A stretch of DNA of 26,991 nt from Cyanobacteria bacterium OTE_58_metabat_593. GTDB taxonomy: Bacteria; Cyanobacteriota; Cyanobacteriia; Cyanobacteriales; Microcoleaceae. The DNA is taken from assembly GCA_031372825.1 (NCBI GenBank), contig JANMLZ010000082.1, forward strand, positions 1 to 26,991. Reading direction: 5' to 3'. A program made the position numbers and the translations under genes. How positions within the stretch are numbered: position 1 is the first letter of the stretch; every line of letters starts with the position of its first letter. This document shows, piece by piece, positions 11,323-16,750 of the stretch. Under the pieces are notes generated by a model. It saw nothing but the letters and a program-made list of their open reading frames with translations, did not search any database and was not told the DNA's origin.

Positions 11323-12111
11323 TCAATCTCGCAATCCTCGATCGTGCAACCAAGCATTTGCCCAAATTGTATCGGCTTCTGACAGCGCTGGTATGACTTC
11401 CCAGTTGCGATAATCTATCTTCAGGTCATAACTTGCGATGTCATAAATTTGAGTGAATAATTCCTGCAAATCAATGATAGGTTCGATGTCGCCCGATCGC
11501 AGTGGCAGAGGAAAGGCAGGCATCGGATTCTGCACGTTAAAAGCGTACAAATCTGCTCTGGGACGGCGATTTCCCCGACACACTAAAACGCTATAGTGGC
11601 TTTCCACATTATTGCCAATAACTGGCATTTTTCGACCGCGCCGCAATAAATCTATTTCAATTAAATGAGTACGAGTGGATAAGATTTCTTCTCGCTTTTC
11701 TTCATACATTTGTCGTCCTTTTCCTGTGCGCTTATTGCTAGGTGATAGGATTTCAATAACTGTGATTAATTCTTCGTTTCCCCTTTCTCTAATTTCTAAA
11801 TAGCCTTCCCGAACCTGGTAAGGCATGGGAATACTTACTGTTAATGGTTGTGTCGGTGGCTCTGCAACCGCTACGTTTGATGCGATTAATTCGGTTGTGG
11901 TTCTTGGCTGAATTACGTTTACATCAGGAATGCCAATTGATAAATTGTCGTCAGCCGTTTCATACATTCTCACTTCTACAGACACTAAATACTTAGGACG
12001 TAGTTGCGGAGATAACAATCTGGCAATTTCAATAATTAGCCAGTGGTGTAAGGCAGGCCAGAGTTCTGGATGCTCTAAATACGGGTCCATACCAGGGAAG
12101 GGAGATGGCAT
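11323..12111 (-). CDS. DUF4058 family protein
   Basis: Characteristic N-terminus MPSPFPGMDPYLEHPELWPALHHWLI. Internal IPDV ... VIEILSPSNK resembles the PD-(D/E)xK-type motif of Uma2/DUF820 proteins. Confidence 0.8.
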   Translation of the reverse strand: MPSPFPGMDPYLEHPELWPALHHWLIIEIARLLSPQLRPKYLVSVEVRMYETADDNLSIGIPDVNVIQPRTTTELIASNVAVAEPPTQPLTVSIPMPYQVREGYLEIRERGNEELITVIEILSPSNKRTGKGRQMYEEKREEILSTRTHLIEIDLLRRGRKMPVIGNNVESHYSVLVCRGNRRPRADLYAFNVQNPMPAFPLPLRSGDIEPIIDLQELFTQIYDIASYDLKIDYRNWEVIPALSEADTIWANAWLHDRGLRD

Positions 12112-12593: not shown

Positions 12594-12806
12594 ATGGGAT
12601 TAATTCGGTTGCGAGTTCGAGAACTAGCTGAGGAAAAGGGTTGGACGCTGAAAGAAGTCTCTGACAGAACGGGAATTCCCTACAGTACGGTTAAAAAATA
12701 CGCCCAAGCTCCAAAAATGGCAACGGTGGACTACACGGCTTTGCAGAAACTTGCTGAAGTCTTCGATGTGATGGTGGAAGACTTGGTTGAGGTTTTGGAA
12801 CGGTAA
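12594..12806 (+). CDS. XRE/Cro-C1 family HTH transcriptional regulator (70 aa)
   Basis: LRELAEEKGWTLKEVSDRTGIPYSTVKKYAQ is a canonical Cro/C1 HTH. Confidence 0.85.
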   Translation: MGLIRLRVRELAEEKGWTLKEVSDRTGIPYSTVKKYAQAPKMATVDYTALQKLAEVFDVMVEDLVEVLER

Positions 12807-12835
12807 ACTGATTTGTCGTTGGGAATATGGGTAGT

Positions 12836-12922
12836 CAGAAACCGGGTTTTTCCGGGAAAAATTCGCTACAGCCCGCAGACTCGGTAAAAACCCGGTTTCT
12901 TTGGTCGCAGCACGCAAGTCCT
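12836..12922 (+). repeat. MITE-like hairpin repeat, copy a
   Basis: 65-nt core (12836-12900) with a perfect 15-bp internal inverted repeat AGAAACCGGGTTTTT / AAAAACCCGGTTTCT. It matches the core at 15820-15884 at 54 of 65 positions in the same orientation. It is followed by CACGCAAGTCCT, which resembles the AGGACTTACGCA terminal repeat seen at 24533 and 24633. Confidence 0.6.
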
Positions 12923-13019
12923 GACTGATTAGTCGCTCTTTGCAGTAAAAATACGCATATTGGAATTTTCCGGTTGTAGACTAGAGTCAGGAGTTGTTCA
13001 GTCTGCCGGAGTTAGATCG

Positions 13020-13511
13020 ATGCCAATTAATCGTCTGTCTGATATACAAGAAAGTTTGGAATTGCTGCAAGAGCAATTAGGTGGCAAGCAGAAAGCTCTA
13101 AATTTTGCACCGCAAGAAGAAAAGATCCGAATTAAACAGCAAATTCGAGAGCTACGCAAGGAGATTCGGGAGCAGGAAAAGGAGTATTGGCAGGTTCTGG
13201 CTAGGCAAACGCAAACAGCGGACATTCCCGAACCGGAAGCTGAGATTATTGTTGCCGAGATTGTCGAAGAAGTTGGGCAAATTGAAGTGCAGCGACAGTA
13301 TTCCGATGAAGTGCTTCAGATTTTGCAGCAGATTCGGGACAAGCTGAACGAACCGGGACCGACAGCAGCCGCGAAACTTAAAGGCGTAATCTCAAGCATT
13401 CCGCCGTTTGTAGGAATTTCCTACGAGGCAGAATTGGATACAGAGAATTTTTTACAGCAGCATTTTCCAACGTTTCGGGAATGGGCTAAAGTATTAGCAA
13501 AAAAGTCCTAG
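13020..13511 (+). CDS. Coiled-coil protein (163 aa from ATG 13020); possibly the N-terminal module of the downstream STAND NTPase
   Basis: GGAG lies 8 nt upstream of ATG 13020; the track start at 12960 is a TTG. There is a heptad-rich K/E/Q segment (QEEKIRIKQQIRELRKEIREQEKEYW). It ends GCA AAA AAG TCC TAG. No enzymatic motif was recognised. Confidence 0.65.
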   Translation: MPINRLSDIQESLELLQEQLGGKQKALNFAPQEEKIRIKQQIRELRKEIREQEKEYWQVLARQTQTADIPEPEAEIIVAEIVEEVGQIEVQRQYSDEVLQILQQIRDKLNEPGPTAAAKLKGVISSIPPFVGISYEAELDTENFLQQHFPTFREWAKVLAKKS

Positions 13512-13540
13512 ACCTGGAGCAAAAAACACCCAATCCAGGT
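13499..13540 (+). promoter_or_regulatory. Candidate -1 ribosomal frameshift (or homopolymer-slippage) cassette: A_AAA_AAG heptamer, 6-nt spacer, 7-bp hairpin
   Basis: The heptamer at 13499-13505 is in the zero frame of the upstream ORF, two codons before its TAG. Stem ACCTGGA (13512-13518) pairs with TCCAGGT (13534-13540). The -1 frame is open from 13490 into the NB-ARC ORF. Confidence 0.45.
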
Positions 13541-13615
13541 TTCACAAGTTTTTACCAACTTTACGATATTCCCTCCGAACTAGGTTCCAAAAACTTTGTC
13601 GGGCGGGATGAGGAA

Positions 13616-15787
13616 ATGCAGCAATTGCACGGATTGTTGCAGGATGGAAATCGCGTTGCGATCGCGGCTGTGTCGGGAATGGGCGGCATCGGCAAGACAG
13701 AATTGGCATGGCAGTATGCAACATTTCACCGCGAATCTAACACTTATCCAGCGGGGATTTGGTGGCTGTTTGTGCGGGAAATCGATTTAGCGCCGCAGGT
13801 GTTGCAAAAAGCACTGCGAATGGGAATTCAGCCGCCGGATACTCTCGACAATCTGGAGGAACGGTTGCAGTTTTGCTACGAAGAGTGGGCAAAAAAAACC
13901 TCTGGGAATGCTCTGCTGGTATTGGATGATGTCATTGATTACCGCGCGGTGCAGCCGTTGCTGCCTCGAAATCCCCGCTTTAAGGTGTTGCTGACAGCGC
14001 GACAAATTGTGCCTCCACCTGTGGGGTGTTTGCCGTTAAAAGTGTTGAAACCAGAGGCGGCGCTAAACTTGCTGCGGCTGACGGCTGGGGATTTGCCGGG
14101 AAACGGGCTGGGACGGATTGATGCCCAGCTTGAAGATGCTGAAGCGCTTTGTCAGTGGTTGGATTATTTGCCTTTGGGCATCGAACTGGTGGGGCGCTAT
14201 CTGCGACGCAAGCGCGCGCTGTCCGTGGCAGAAATGCTGCAACGGTTGCAGAGTCAGCGATTGGAGGCGCGGGCATTGCAGGAGGCGGAAGCTGGGATGA
14301 CGGCTAGGCGCGGAGTGGCGGCAGCCTTTGAGTTGAGTTGGGCGGAGTTGAAACCTGCCGCGCGGACGCTGGGGTGTCTGCTGAGCGTGTTTGCTCTGGC
14401 TCCGATTCCTTGGGAGTTGGTAGCTGACTGTTTGTCGGATTGGGATGAGGAGGAGTTGGAGGATTGTCGGGATTACGAACTGCTGGAACAAAGTTTGCTG
14501 TCGCTGGTGGAGGATGAAAGCTCAGATCCGGCTCAATCTGGGCTGGTGCAGCCACGCTATCAACTTCATGCTTTGATTCGGGAGTTTTTTGCGGCGAAAT
14601 TGCAGGGACGGGCCGATGCGGAGAATTTGCGGAGAGGCTTTGCTGTGGTGTTGACGGCGGTGGGGAAGACGATTCCGTATGTGGTGGCGCTGGAGGTGCA
14701 GGAACGGGTAAAGGAGGCGCTGCCGCATTTGGCGGTGGTGGCGGAGCAATGGTCCCAATTGGTGCAAGATAGCGATGATGCCGTGTTGTCTTTTACGGGG
14801 TTAGCGCGGGTTGCCGAGAGCCAGAGTTTGTGGGCAGAGGCGGAGAAGTGGTATCAAGCTTGCCTCCAGATGACGGAGGAACGCTACGGAGCCGAGCATC
14901 CCAATACGGGATTGAGCTTGAACAATCTGGCGGGGATGTACAAGTCAATGGGGCGCTATTCAGAGGCGGAACCCTTGTTAGAGAGAGCGCTCGCTATCAG
15001 AGAACAGCAGCTCGGAGCTGACCATCCCGATACGTCTAACAGTTTAAACAATCTGGGAGAACTGTACCGAGCAATGGGGCGCTACCCAGAGGCGCTACCC
15101 TTGTTAGAGCGATCGCTCGCTATCAGAGAGCAGCAGCTCGGAGCCGACAATCCTTATACAGCAGCGGGTTTGAACAATTTGGCAGTGCTGTACCATGAAA
15201 TGGGCCGCTACTCGGAGGCGGAACCCTTGTTAGTGCGATCGCTCTCAATCAGGGAGCAACAGCTCGGAGCCGACCATCCCAGTACAGCATTGAGTTTGAA
15301 CAATCTGGCATGGCTGTACGAGTCAATGGGACGCTACCCGGAGGCGGAACCCTTGTATTTGCGATCAATTTCGATTAACGAACAACAGCTCGGAGCCTAC
15401 CATCCCAATACGGCAATGAGTTTGATCAATCTGGCAGTCCTGTACAAGGTAATGGGACGTTACCCGGAGGCAGAACCCTTGTATTTGCGATCAATTTCGA
15501 TCCACGAACAGCAGCTTGGAGCCGACCATCCCAGTACAGCATTGAGTTTGAACAATCTGGCACAGCTATACCGTGCAATGCGTCGCTACCCGGAGGCGGA
15601 ACCCTTGTATTTGCGATCGTTAGAAATCTCGTTTCACCGATTGGGAGAGGAACATCCAAATACCCAAACCTTTTGGAGGAATTTCATTGATTGTCTTCGG
15701 GAGGCGATATCAGCGGGTCAAGACTCGCAACTTTCCCAGCATCCAACAACGCAAGCAATACTTCAGCAACTTCGGGAGATGGAGTAG
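13616..15787 (+). CDS. STAND NTPase: NB-ARC-type P-loop domain plus kinesin-light-chain-type TPR array
   Basis: Walker A GMGGIGKTELA lies only about 20 aa after the annotated Met, and Walker B is LLVLDDV. Six full 42-aa TPR units (LGADHPxTAxSLNNLAxLYxxMGRYxEAEPL) plus a cap follow. The conserved NFVGRDEE segment lies upstream of ATG 13616 in the same frame, so the 5' end as called is probably incomplete. Confidence 0.9.
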   Translation: MQQLHGLLQDGNRVAIAAVSGMGGIGKTELAWQYATFHRESNTYPAGIWWLFVREIDLAPQVLQKALRMGIQPPDTLDNLEERLQFCYEEWAKKTSGNALLVLDDVIDYRAVQPLLPRNPRFKVLLTARQIVPPPVGCLPLKVLKPEAALNLLRLTAGDLPGNGLGRIDAQLEDAEALCQWLDYLPLGIELVGRYLRRKRALSVAEMLQRLQSQRLEARALQEAEAGMTARRGVAAAFELSWAELKPAARTLGCLLSVFALAPIPWELVADCLSDWDEEELEDCRDYELLEQSLLSLVEDESSDPAQSGLVQPRYQLHALIREFFAAKLQGRADAENLRRGFAVVLTAVGKTIPYVVALEVQERVKEALPHLAVVAEQWSQLVQDSDDAVLSFTGLARVAESQSLWAEAEKWYQACLQMTEERYGAEHPNTGLSLNNLAGMYKSMGRYSEAEPLLERALAIREQQLGADHPDTSNSLNNLGELYRAMGRYPEALPLLERSLAIREQQLGADNPYTAAGLNNLAVLYHEMGRYSEAEPLLVRSLSIREQQLGADHPSTALSLNNLAWLYESMGRYPEAEPLYLRSISINEQQLGAYHPNTAMSLINLAVLYKVMGRYPEAEPLYLRSISIHEQQLGADHPSTALSLNNLAQLYRAMRRYPEAEPLYLRSLEISFHRLGEEHPNTQTFWRNFIDCLREAISAGQDSQLSQHPTTQAILQQLREME
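14880..15640 (+). repeat. Tandem 126-bp coding repeats (about six 42-aa TPR units) with high nucleotide identity
   Basis: Recurrent CAGCAGCTCGGAGCCGACCATCCC ... GGGCGCTACCCGGAGGCGGAACCCTTG blocks occur at 126-bp spacing. Confidence 0.8.
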
Positions 15788-16037: not shown

Positions 16038-16430
16038 TCAATCAACAGACTGAACAGAATTTTCTTCCAACCACTTCGCTAACGTATCCTGGGTTTCCCC
16101 ATCAGATGCTAACCGTTCCATTATCCCCACAACTTCCATCTCAGGAACCTCAAGAGAATATCCATTTACTTCAAGGAAAGTTGCCATCACAGCAAACGCT
16201 GTTCTTTTATTACCATCTATAAAAGGATGATTCTTTGTCAAACCATAGCCATAGGCTGCTGCTAACTCAAACAAAGTCGGTTCACCATAGGCAAATAGAT
16301 GCCTCGGTCTAGCTAGACTAGCTGAAAGAAGATTTTCATCTCTAATTCCCGGACTACCGCCATGCTGAACAATTTGATCTGCATGAATCATTGTTGCTAT
16401 TTCTTCTGCCATCCAAAATGGTTCGCTCAT
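16038..16430 (-). CDS. doc: Doc (death-on-curing) Fic-fold toxin
   Basis: Fic/Doc motif HPFIDGNKRTAF in 130 aa. An ATGA overlap links it to the upstream antitoxin gene. Confidence 0.9.
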   Translation of the reverse strand: MSEPFWMAEEIATMIHADQIVQHGGSPGIRDENLLSASLARPRHLFAYGEPTLFELAAAYGYGLTKNHPFIDGNKRTAFAVMATFLEVNGYSLEVPEMEVVGIMERLASDGETQDTLAKWLEENSVQSVD

Positions 16431-16651
16431 TTAGCAAGTTCCCGCAGCGCATTTTTATACTTTTCGCTGACTTTCCTATAAGCTTTCATTGCTCGATCGA
16501 TTTCAGGATTGCAAGTATCGAGTTTAATGCCCTCATGAGTTTCTGTCAGGAAAAGACTATCTCCTTCACCGACATTGAGTTGTTGCAATACTTCTTCTGG
16601 CAGAGTTATTACGAAAGAGTCTCCAACTTTTTGAATTTTGACGGCGTACAT
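16427..16651 (-). CDS. AbrB/MazE/SpoVT-family antitoxin paired with Doc
   Basis: MYAVKIQKVGDSFVITLPEEVLQQLNVGEGDSLFL is a swapped-hairpin AbrB-type motif. An AGGTGA Shine-Dalgarno sequence precedes ATG 16651; the track start at 16702 is probably too long. Confidence 0.8.
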   Translation of the reverse strand: MYAVKIQKVGDSFVITLPEEVLQQLNVGEGDSLFLTETHEGIKLDTCNPEIDRAMKAYRKVSEKYKNALRELAK

Positions 16652-16750
16652 AGCATCACCTAAAAAGATCGCTTCTTTAATATTAACCGAATACGGCGGC
16701 AATGTTCAATCCCTTTCTCGATTAGTAACCTGCAATGTGAAATAGTAGTT

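Follow-up and report, generated by a model that had tools for sequence, protein, structure and literature searches.

Outside mobile elements and phages, few conserved programmed frameshifts are known in bacterial genes; to our knowledge, those of dnaX, copA, csoS2, cdd and chlD are among them. In dnaX, the shifted ribosome terminates at once and the short gamma protein is the recoded product (PMC5009743). The principle of effector-associated domains (EADs) was set out by Kaur et al. (2020, 2021, eLife; PMC7159879, PMC8195603), an EAD being defined by its distribution, with the same domain found on effectors and N-terminally on NTPase sensors (PMC8195603). According to Kaur et al. (2021, eLife), TRADD-N proteins and AP-ATPase-TPR proteins form a two-gene neighbourhood (PMC8195603), and frameshift, recoding and slippage are absent from that paper. 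The abstract of Dyrka et al. (bioRxiv 10.1101/2020.01.06.895854) deals with NLR-associated amyloid signalling motifs (BASS) in filamentous bacteria. Here, a pair of adjacent open reading frames (ORFs) is analysed in a stretch of 26,991 nucleotides of Cyanobacteria bacterium OTE_58_metabat_593 (Microcoleaceae; assembly GCA_031372825.1, contig JANMLZ010000082.1), called the window below. ORF1 encodes a small helical module and is followed by an NB-ARC/TPR ORF of the STAND NTPase type. As judged from comparative sequence analysis, it is likely that −1 programmed ribosomal frameshifting at 13499–13505 yields both a 163-aa module and a 922-aa module-NB-ARC-TPR fusion.

ORF1 (13020..13511, + strand) was taken from the ORF list, and its zero-frame product is a 163-aa all-helical module consisting of a coiled-coil hairpin and a helical bundle. 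An alternative start lies upstream at TTG 12960, with ATG 13020 being the more likely one; in alignments, distant homologues begin where ATG 13020 lies, and GGAG stands upstream of this codon. Positions 13491–13518 read ...GTA TTA GCA AAA AAG TCC TAG ACC TGG AG..., the last codons of ORF1 being GCA AAA AAG TCC TAG and its C-terminal end AKKS*. The slippery heptamer A_AAA_AAG (13499..13505, + strand) lies in the zero frame of ORF1 with X XXY YYZ phasing over the codons GCA AAA AAG, and the zero-frame stop TAG (13509..13511, + strand) follows one codon past it. The −1 frame is closed by TAA at 13487–13489, then open from 13490 to a stop at 15785–15787, and its translation is SISKKVLDLEQKTPNPGFTSFYQLYDIPSELGSKNFVGRDEEMQQL... 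The first ATG, GTG or TTG in this frame is ATG 13616. Upstream of it, the start-less −1 coding stretch (13505..13615, + strand) consists of a linker of variable sequence (VLDLEQKTPNPG...) and then LYDIPSELGSKNFVGRDEE, the conserved peptide with which the NB-ARC module begins. The NB-ARC (AP-ATPase) and TPR ORF (13616..15787, + strand) is counted from this first ATG, where a gene caller would start, while 13505–15787 corresponds to the 760-aa C-terminal part of the predicted 922-aa fusion counted from ATG 13020.

Within the −1 product, an NB-ARC domain with a Walker A motif is followed by C-terminal TPR repeats. The Walker A sequence GMGGIGKT (13676..13699, + strand) was located from the translation and the sequence, and Pfam reports NB-ARC at E = 4e-14 (52.9 bits, cut-off 23.5) and TPR_12 at E = 2e-83. 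In the translation from 13490, the Pfam AAA_16 match begins at residue 35 (nt 13592) and the NB-ARC match at residue 40 (nt 13607), both upstream of M43, which corresponds to ATG 13616. The FVGRDEE motif of the NB-ARC module is also encoded upstream of this ATG. A sequence-only reading of the window had described the heptamer in the zero frame, the −1 frame free of start codons from 13490 to 13616 and a FVGRxxE motif upstream of the only start codon, all of which were confirmed, and had argued that the two ORFs are, or recently were, a single protein of roughly 920 aa. PADLOC returned just a generic TPR model (E = 3e-11) and no match to an Avs or NLR model. In a scan of 12700–13800, no terminator was found between ORF1 and the NB-ARC ORF, and the single promoter-like match was at chance level. 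The heptamer by itself is not rare, with 9 copies of A_AAA_AAG observed in the window against 11.9 expected. As the heptamer and the hairpin are unexceptional as motifs, their significance rests on position and comparative conservation.

In the proposed mechanism, ORF1 and the NB-ARC/TPR ORF would be one recoded gene. The majority of ribosomes would finish ORF1 at TAG 13509 and release the free 163-aa helical module. In a fraction of ribosomes, the two lysyl-tRNAs on A_AAA_AAG (13499–13505) would slip back one base, probably aided by the stop one codon away and by the hairpin 4–6 nt downstream. These shifted ribosomes would read ...LAKK-VLDLEQK..., with ...WAKVLAKKVLDLE as the trans-frame junction peptide, and produce the 922-aa module-NB-ARC-TPR protein. 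The outcome would be two N-terminally identical products, in a ratio set by the frameshift efficiency. In E. coli, the slipperiness of A_AAA_AAG is set by the tRNA-Lys repertoire.

The configuration recurs in many cyanobacterial genera. A genome scan with the module alignment retrieved 55 cyanobacterial loci, and a metagenome scan 62 further loci (117 in total). Fifty-three genome loci were analysable, i.e. 52 of the 55 scanned and the window; L042 was left out because it extends beyond its contig, and L011 and L018 because they are fused in frame. In 45 of these 53, the module ends with an in-frame A_AAA_AAG or an A9–10 run, the latter in Nostocales and Pseudanabaena-type loci, with a stop 0–3 codons further on. 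In 40 of the 45 run-bearing loci, the −1 ORF that follows measures 150 aa or more (up to 1081 aa) or is still open where the contig ends, while in the eight genome loci without the run it never exceeds 52 aa (Fisher p = 1.5e-6). Among the metagenome loci, the run is present in 58 of 62 and a long −1 ORF in 49 of those 58. No +1 configurations were seen among the genome and metagenome loci. Complete genomes of Microcoleus, Stenomitos, Anabaena and Microcystis are among the carriers.

Conservation is also visible at the level of single nucleotides. The window and 88 related loci have just A6 or A7 followed by G, and in this A6G class both lysine codons are invariably AAA AAG. The codon preceding the heptamer is GCA, CTA, CCA, GTA, TTA or ACA; its third base is always A, while it encodes five different residues (A, L, P, V, T). 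By this codon usage, the constraint acts on the nucleotides and not on the peptide. Module loci that have no partner, such as L017 (an SNF2-module protein), L019, L032 and L057, have tails reading GCG AAA AAG, GCG AAA AGG, GCT AAA AGA or GGA GAA AAC. Within the Microcoleus clade of the window, the tract is A6 in 16/16 loci.

Three Tychonema/Oscillatoriales loci (L014, 4493–4540; L016, 1170–1215; L056, 227–270) have a decayed heptamer (GGA AAA AAC or GGA GAA AAC) and no −1 ORF, and carry tandem 7-nt repeats of GGGCATA after the module-gene stop. The Microcystis metagenome loci, i.e. L101, L102, L112, L115–L117 and L121 on one side and L100, L105, L113, L114 and L120 on the other, are near-identical and all keep the heptamer, and their −1 ORF is either 32 aa or 680–731 aa long. 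L112 and L114 are identical over the first 42 nt past the stop, and the length difference suggests a second polymorphism or a decayed allele downstream.

The start-less stretch before ATG 13616 shows the substitution pattern of a coding sequence under purifying selection in the NB-ARC frame. Across nine Microcoleus loci, the conserved peptide, which covers the 19 codons upstream of the ATG, has seven variable codons, none of which changes the amino acid in that frame; across the same nine loci, variation is free in the first 18 codons of the linker. The Pegethrix NB-ARC protein P0034, which has its own N-terminus, contains LYDIPADLGSENFVGRED, matching the start-less −1 stretch of the window. 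Across related loci, 17–782 nt separate the zero-frame stop from the first canonical start of the −1 frame. In five Nostocales loci (L020, L023, L027, L028 and L036), Walker A is encoded upstream of that first start, at about 250 nt past the stop, with the start itself at 323–740 nt. Judging from these arrangements, the downstream ORFs cannot be expressed independently. A conserved non-canonical start in 13490–13615 was considered and rejected, CTG 13514 being CAG or CGG in close relatives and ATT 13493 not being conserved. In the databases, NB-ARC homologues with 90–95% identity are all called from the same Met (MQQLHG), and the syntenic Microcoleus loci L001 and L002 have the same 105-nt gap between the module-gene stop and the called NB-ARC start. 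A search with the conceptual fusion (ORF1 and the first part of the NB-ARC region) returned no protein that spanned both halves.

Next to the heptamer, a candidate stimulatory hairpin is present at 13510..13542 (+ strand), with a core stem of 13512–13518 paired with 13534–13540, a 15-nt loop and a spacer of 4–6 nt, against about 5–9 nt for stimulatory structures at −1 sites of the X_XXY_YYZ type. The core stem has 7 bp (ACCTGGA/TCCAGGT), and RNAfold lengthens it to 9 bp (13510–13518 with 13534–13542). Its energy is −11.6 kcal/mol (z = −3.47), and none of 200 dinucleotide shuffles was as stable. All seven core pairs are kept in 13 of the 16 Microcoleus-clade loci, in one of them via a G·U pair, and the 15-nt loop is more variable than the stem arms. 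Since the loops vary too much in length for a covariation analysis, the hairpin energy of each locus was judged against control windows instead. For each locus, the 45 nt after the slippery run were folded and compared to 45-nt windows of the same locus's downstream ORF, with the A6G loci dereplicated at 70% identity to 37 loci. In 18 of these 37, the hairpin energy falls in the lowest 5% of the control windows (binomial p = 3e-14; median percentile 0.056). The stems of the A6G class have 7–13 bp and begin 3–6 nt past the heptamer, and their sequences are unrelated between loci. In the A9–10 class, none of the seven loci has a hairpin in the lowest 5% (median percentile 0.45). This split fits ribosomal frameshifting for the A6G class and, possibly, transcriptional slippage for the A9–10 class. 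Rfam, searched over 13300–13800 at a permissive threshold, gave no frameshift-element family, only chance matches below the gathering scores.

Purine-rich, Shine-Dalgarno (SD)-like AAGG(N)G is found 1–5 nt 5' of the heptamer in many non-Microcoleus loci (e.g. L015, L025, L030, L033 and L047). An example tail is AAA GGT GCG GCA AAA AAG, in which these purines encode the conserved K-G of the module tail. The window does not have them.

The sequence-only reading had proposed to look for relatives that encode a single fused ORF, and in-frame fusions were indeed found. L011 (A7) reads AKKVVD, L018 (A10) reads IKKKTDD, and L091 and L092 (A7) read AKKALA; these junctions equal those predicted for a −1 shift in A6 or A9 relatives. 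Such one-extra-A variants number just four among about 117 loci. The extra A lies at about 4480–4500 in L011, 4455–4475 in L018 and 2960–2975 in L091/L092; in L011 and P0032 (A7), the NB-ARC part is also deleted, which leaves a module-TPR protein. A profile search of 1.84 billion representatives retrieved 299 module-family members, mostly of 160–175 aa, with a few that have a more divergent module in frame and N-terminal to long proteins. Two of the in-frame proteins match −1 products of other loci. P0235 (module, NB-ARC-like and TPR) shares about 570 homologous residues with the −1 products of L051/L052 (E = 1e-98), and P0166 (module, transmembrane (TM) and TPR) is homologous to the −1 products of L041/L046/L049 (E = 1e-79 to 1e-104).

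Based on Pfam, the −1 products fall into NB-ARC with TPR (several divergent lineages), NACHT with multiple TM segments (Caldora), nSTAND_NTPase4 (Nostocales) and TM with TPR, and one has no Pfam match. Since the partners differ by lineage, the module and the slippery site are the constant part and the sensor is exchangeable. The same site is found in longer proteins that end in the module. The TIR-module proteins of L058–L060 end in A_AAA_AAG followed by a strong hairpin of 9–10 bp and a −1 ORF of 730–780 aa (AAA_22/TPR), and the TRADD-N-module proteins of L001/L012 (Microcoleus) have the same heptamer, only the weakened clade stem, and a −1 NB-ARC/TPR ORF.

Two of the TIR-module-frameshift-STAND contigs (L058, 507–3806; L059, 552–3071) carry a second NB-ARC/TPR gene. 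In L058, a 144-aa ORF that matches Phage_TAC_11 faintly lies before this second gene, and a further TIR gene lies downstream. These regions look like clustered conflict-system islands.

Several results weigh against programmed frameshifting at this locus or limit its generality. The window hairpin ranks at just the 31st percentile of 45-nt windows from its own GC-richer downstream gene, and in three of the 16 close relatives (L007, L012 and L062) the stem is weakened without compensation, to six pairs in two loci and five pairs in one. The 7-bp stem at 13512–13518/13534–13540 pointed out by the sequence-only reading exists, but is moderate and weakened in these close relatives; as to the conservation of both elements, the heptamer has decayed in all eight genome loci that lack a −1 ORF, and the hairpin is fully kept in 13/16 of the clade. 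From 14 aligned hairpin regions, whose loops differ too much in length, MAFFT and RNAalifold recovered only a core of 4 bp (−0.25 kcal/mol) in which the pair types are mixed. No SD-like element of the dnaX type is present in 13480–13498 of the window. Fourteen loci (5 genome, 9 metagenome) retain the heptamer but have a truncated −1 ORF. Finally, the A7 and A10 in-frame variants indicate that tract changes at the DNA level do occur.

Other explanations can be offered for the same junction. RNA polymerase might add one A in some transcripts, and the edited mRNA would then be translated normally into the fusion, with a product equal to that of a −1 frameshift. Transcriptional slippage is known to occur on tracts of about nine A, for example in Thermus dnaX and in certain IS elements (reviewed in PMC5009743), and the Nostocales, Pseudanabaena and related loci have precisely such A9–A10 runs and no enriched hairpin (0/7, median percentile 0.45). 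However, a homopolymer of about 8–9 or more A/T is restricted to those Nostocales-type relatives, while the window has A6, and RNA polymerase is not known to slip efficiently on tracts as short as A6 or A7 followed by G. In addition, the hairpin 3–6 nt downstream is strongly enriched in the A6G class, which is a hallmark of ribosomal frameshifting, and the G that ends the heptamer and its strict X XXY YYZ phasing matter to tRNA re-pairing and not to the polymerase. We therefore infer that in A6G loci it is the ribosome and not the polymerase that slips, and regard polymerase slippage as improbable for the window, though its probability is higher for the A9 class. The switch could also be located in the DNA itself, with mutation between A6 and A7 turning the fusion on or off in subpopulations and no recoding involved. 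Homopolymers are mutable, and in-frame variants with one extra A exist (L011, P0032, L018, L091/L092). Against such a phase-variable tract, the out-of-frame length is constant in 16/16 clade loci and, taking all relatives, in about 100 loci, among them complete genomes from four genera. A polymorphism with ON and OFF states both common is not what is observed (A6 in 16/16 and four variants in about 117). The tract is short beside known contingency loci, no +1 configurations were seen, and the adjoining zero-frame stop, the third-base constraint on the preceding codon and the enriched hairpins are all unexpected for a DNA switch. An A6 on/off switch, one of the three readings considered in the sequence-only analysis, is very unlikely on this evidence, rare in-frame variants notwithstanding.

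The two ORFs may also be independent genes, the NB-ARC/TPR protein starting at Met 13616, at a non-canonical codon or by reinitiation, and the heptamer merely encoding a C-terminal Lys-Lys. Every gene caller places the start at MQQLHG, Kaur et al. (2021) treat TRADD-N and AP-ATPase-TPR as a two-gene neighbourhood (PMC8195603), and free module proteins without a partner exist (L017, L019 and L032). Yet FVGRDEE and the first residues of the NB-ARC domain are encoded before the ATG, by sequence that purifying selection maintains in the NB-ARC frame; Walker A precedes the first canonical start in several Nostocales loci; and the first start varies over 17–782 nt with no conserved alternative. Moreover, the Lys-Lys pair is without exception encoded by AAA AAG and preceded by a codon with A in third position, a pattern that decays only where no −1 ORF follows. 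Two separate genes are accordingly a highly improbable description of the locus. In a single genome, one homopolymer indel, be it a sequencing error or a recent inactivating deletion in a once-fused gene, would produce the same picture. As the configuration recurs in about 100 independent assemblies or loci across cyanobacterial orders, complete genomes among them, sequencing error is excluded; both ORFs are also intact and under purifying selection, and the homopolymer error or pseudogene envisaged in the sequence-only analysis is effectively refuted. Programmed −1 frameshifting, which that analysis had listed first, is the reading best supported, by the roughly 100 loci, the nucleotide-level conservation, the in-frame relatives and the coding-type evolution upstream of the ATG.

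The module itself could not be assigned to any family in Pfam, NCBIfam or PADLOC, with only sub-threshold coiled-coil noise being returned for ORF1. An AlphaFold2 model based on 19 sequences (pLDDT 89) is all-helical with seven helices, and its comparison with the PDB gave no match at E <= 0.001, only generic helical bundles. Nearly all ORF1 homologues end in ...AKKS or ...AKK, and they are either stand-alone proteins (165–213 aa) or the C-terminal module of TRADD-like_N (387–406 aa) or TIR (322–345 aa) proteins. Overall, the module is found C-terminally in TIR, TRADD-like_N, SNF2-helicase, NACHT and Roc-COR proteins, and N-terminally to STAND or TPR sensors, in frame or through the frameshift. 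It also ends P0193 (1110 aa, NACHT NTPase), P0175 (465 aa, Roc-COR fragment) and P0125 (884 aa, SNF2 helicase). In terms of domain architecture, the module is a promiscuous tag at the C-terminus of signalling and conflict proteins of cyanobacteria. No TRADD-N remnant was found upstream of the window ORF1 by tblastn, ORF1 being the module alone.

An N-terminal effector had been suggested for such STAND proteins in the sequence-only reading. Because it also occurs C-terminally in TIR, TRADD-N and SNF2 proteins, the module looks like an adaptor shared with effector proteins and is not an evident effector. Domain architectures, the only basis for this assignment, suggest that it may be a homotypic adaptor, through which the sensor fusion would be able to assemble together with free module or module-tagged effectors.

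Taking this one step further, a portable cassette made of the helical adaptor module, the −1 site and the hairpin might have been attached repeatedly to unrelated cyanobacterial sensors (NB-ARC, NACHT, nSTAND and TM-TPR). The frameshift efficiency might then set the stoichiometry between free adaptor, or TIR-/TRADD-N-module effector-adaptor, and the adaptor-sensor fusion. By analogy to an inflammasome sensor with ASC or caspase filaments, an activated sensor oligomer might nucleate the excess of free module or effector, and translation stress, such as lysyl-tRNA depletion or phage interference with ribosomes, could shift the ratio and thereby feed into the immune decision. Taken together, these proposals form a tentative picture that we consider rather doubtful as a whole.

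If programmed frameshifting is true for these loci, they constitute a recoding family of about 100 members across cyanobacterial orders, the first in NLR-like STAND systems as far as the literature searched shows. Hundreds of NB-ARC, NACHT and nSTAND genes, now called N-terminally truncated beside 'hypothetical' 165-aa genes, would need re-annotation, and a new adaptor domain would be defined. The setting of an adaptor/effector to sensor ratio in bacterial NLR-like complexes would become directly testable. The family also offers a natural comparison of two recoding solutions at one junction, i.e. A6G with a hairpin and A9–10 without one.

In the genomic neighbourhood of the window locus, a Fic/DOC-family toxin gene (16038–16430, − strand; Pfam E = 8e-18) overlaps a MazE-type antitoxin gene (16427–16702, − strand). 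These look like a toxin-antitoxin pair directly downstream of the NB-ARC/TPR gene. Upstream of ORF1, a DUF4058 protein (11323–12111, − strand; E = 1e-106) and a Cro/C1-type HTH_26 protein (12594–12806, + strand) are encoded. The syntenic Microcoleus loci have a duplicated helix-turn-helix (HTH) gene and, in addition, a CyanoTRADDas_TM gene, and their module gene has a TRADD-N extension.

In a comparison with known systems, the mechanism appears classical, while the gene context, NLR-like STAND systems of multicellular cyanobacteria, appears unreported and widely conserved. The sequence-only reading had considered the coupling of such modules by frameshifting new; this agrees with the literature searched, in which no published report was found, but the mechanism itself is not new. 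No report of frameshifting in TRADD-N, NB-ARC, STAND or similar cyanobacterial cellular genes was found in a literature search of incomplete coverage, and the searchable text of a 2016 recoding review and of the GeneTack survey contains no such case.

The OrfA/OrfAB genes of the IS3 family, retroviral gag-pol and the phage tail assembly chaperone genes G/GT resemble the window locus in having an A_AAA_AAG-type heptamer near the end of the upstream ORF and a close zero-frame stop; the candidate hairpin of the window would correspond to their 3' stem-loop after a short spacer. They also share the start-less downstream ORF, with a short product by standard decoding and the long fusion by the shift only, as is proposed here. 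However, the window locus is neither a mobile element nor a phage gene; an HTH is absent from ORF1, and a DDE domain from the downstream ORF. An IS3-like mobile-element explanation was rejected, there being no transposase domain on either side. The downstream partner here is a STAND NTPase sensor that is swapped between lineages, with the module and the slippery site constant.

E. coli dnaX (tau/gamma), to which the sequence-only reading had likened the junction, has the same heptamer A_AAA_AAG, a downstream hairpin and two products in a fixed ratio. The likeness holds for the heptamer and the candidate hairpin but not for the outcome, as the shift would here extend the protein and not truncate it, the shifted ribosome making the long product. 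In a dnaX-type cassette, an SD-like element, which is absent from the window, lies some 10 nt 5' of the heptamer.

The TRADD-N/AP-ATPase-TPR pair of Kaur et al. is closest in gene content, the same gene pair occurring in the syntenic Microcoleus loci with CyanoTRADDas_TM nearby. Like an EAD, the module is found on effector proteins and at the N-terminus of STAND NTPases. It differs from the EADs of Kaur et al. in matching no Pfam EAD or death-like family and no PDB structure, and the link to the NTPase would here be made via recoding. As for BASS, the abstract of that preprint describes a small upstream gene and an NB-ARC/TPR gene of multicellular bacteria that share a short module thought to couple effector and sensor. 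There, the motif is duplicated in two separately translated proteins, whereas the 160-aa helical domain described here is encoded once and would be attached to its sensor by frameshifting.

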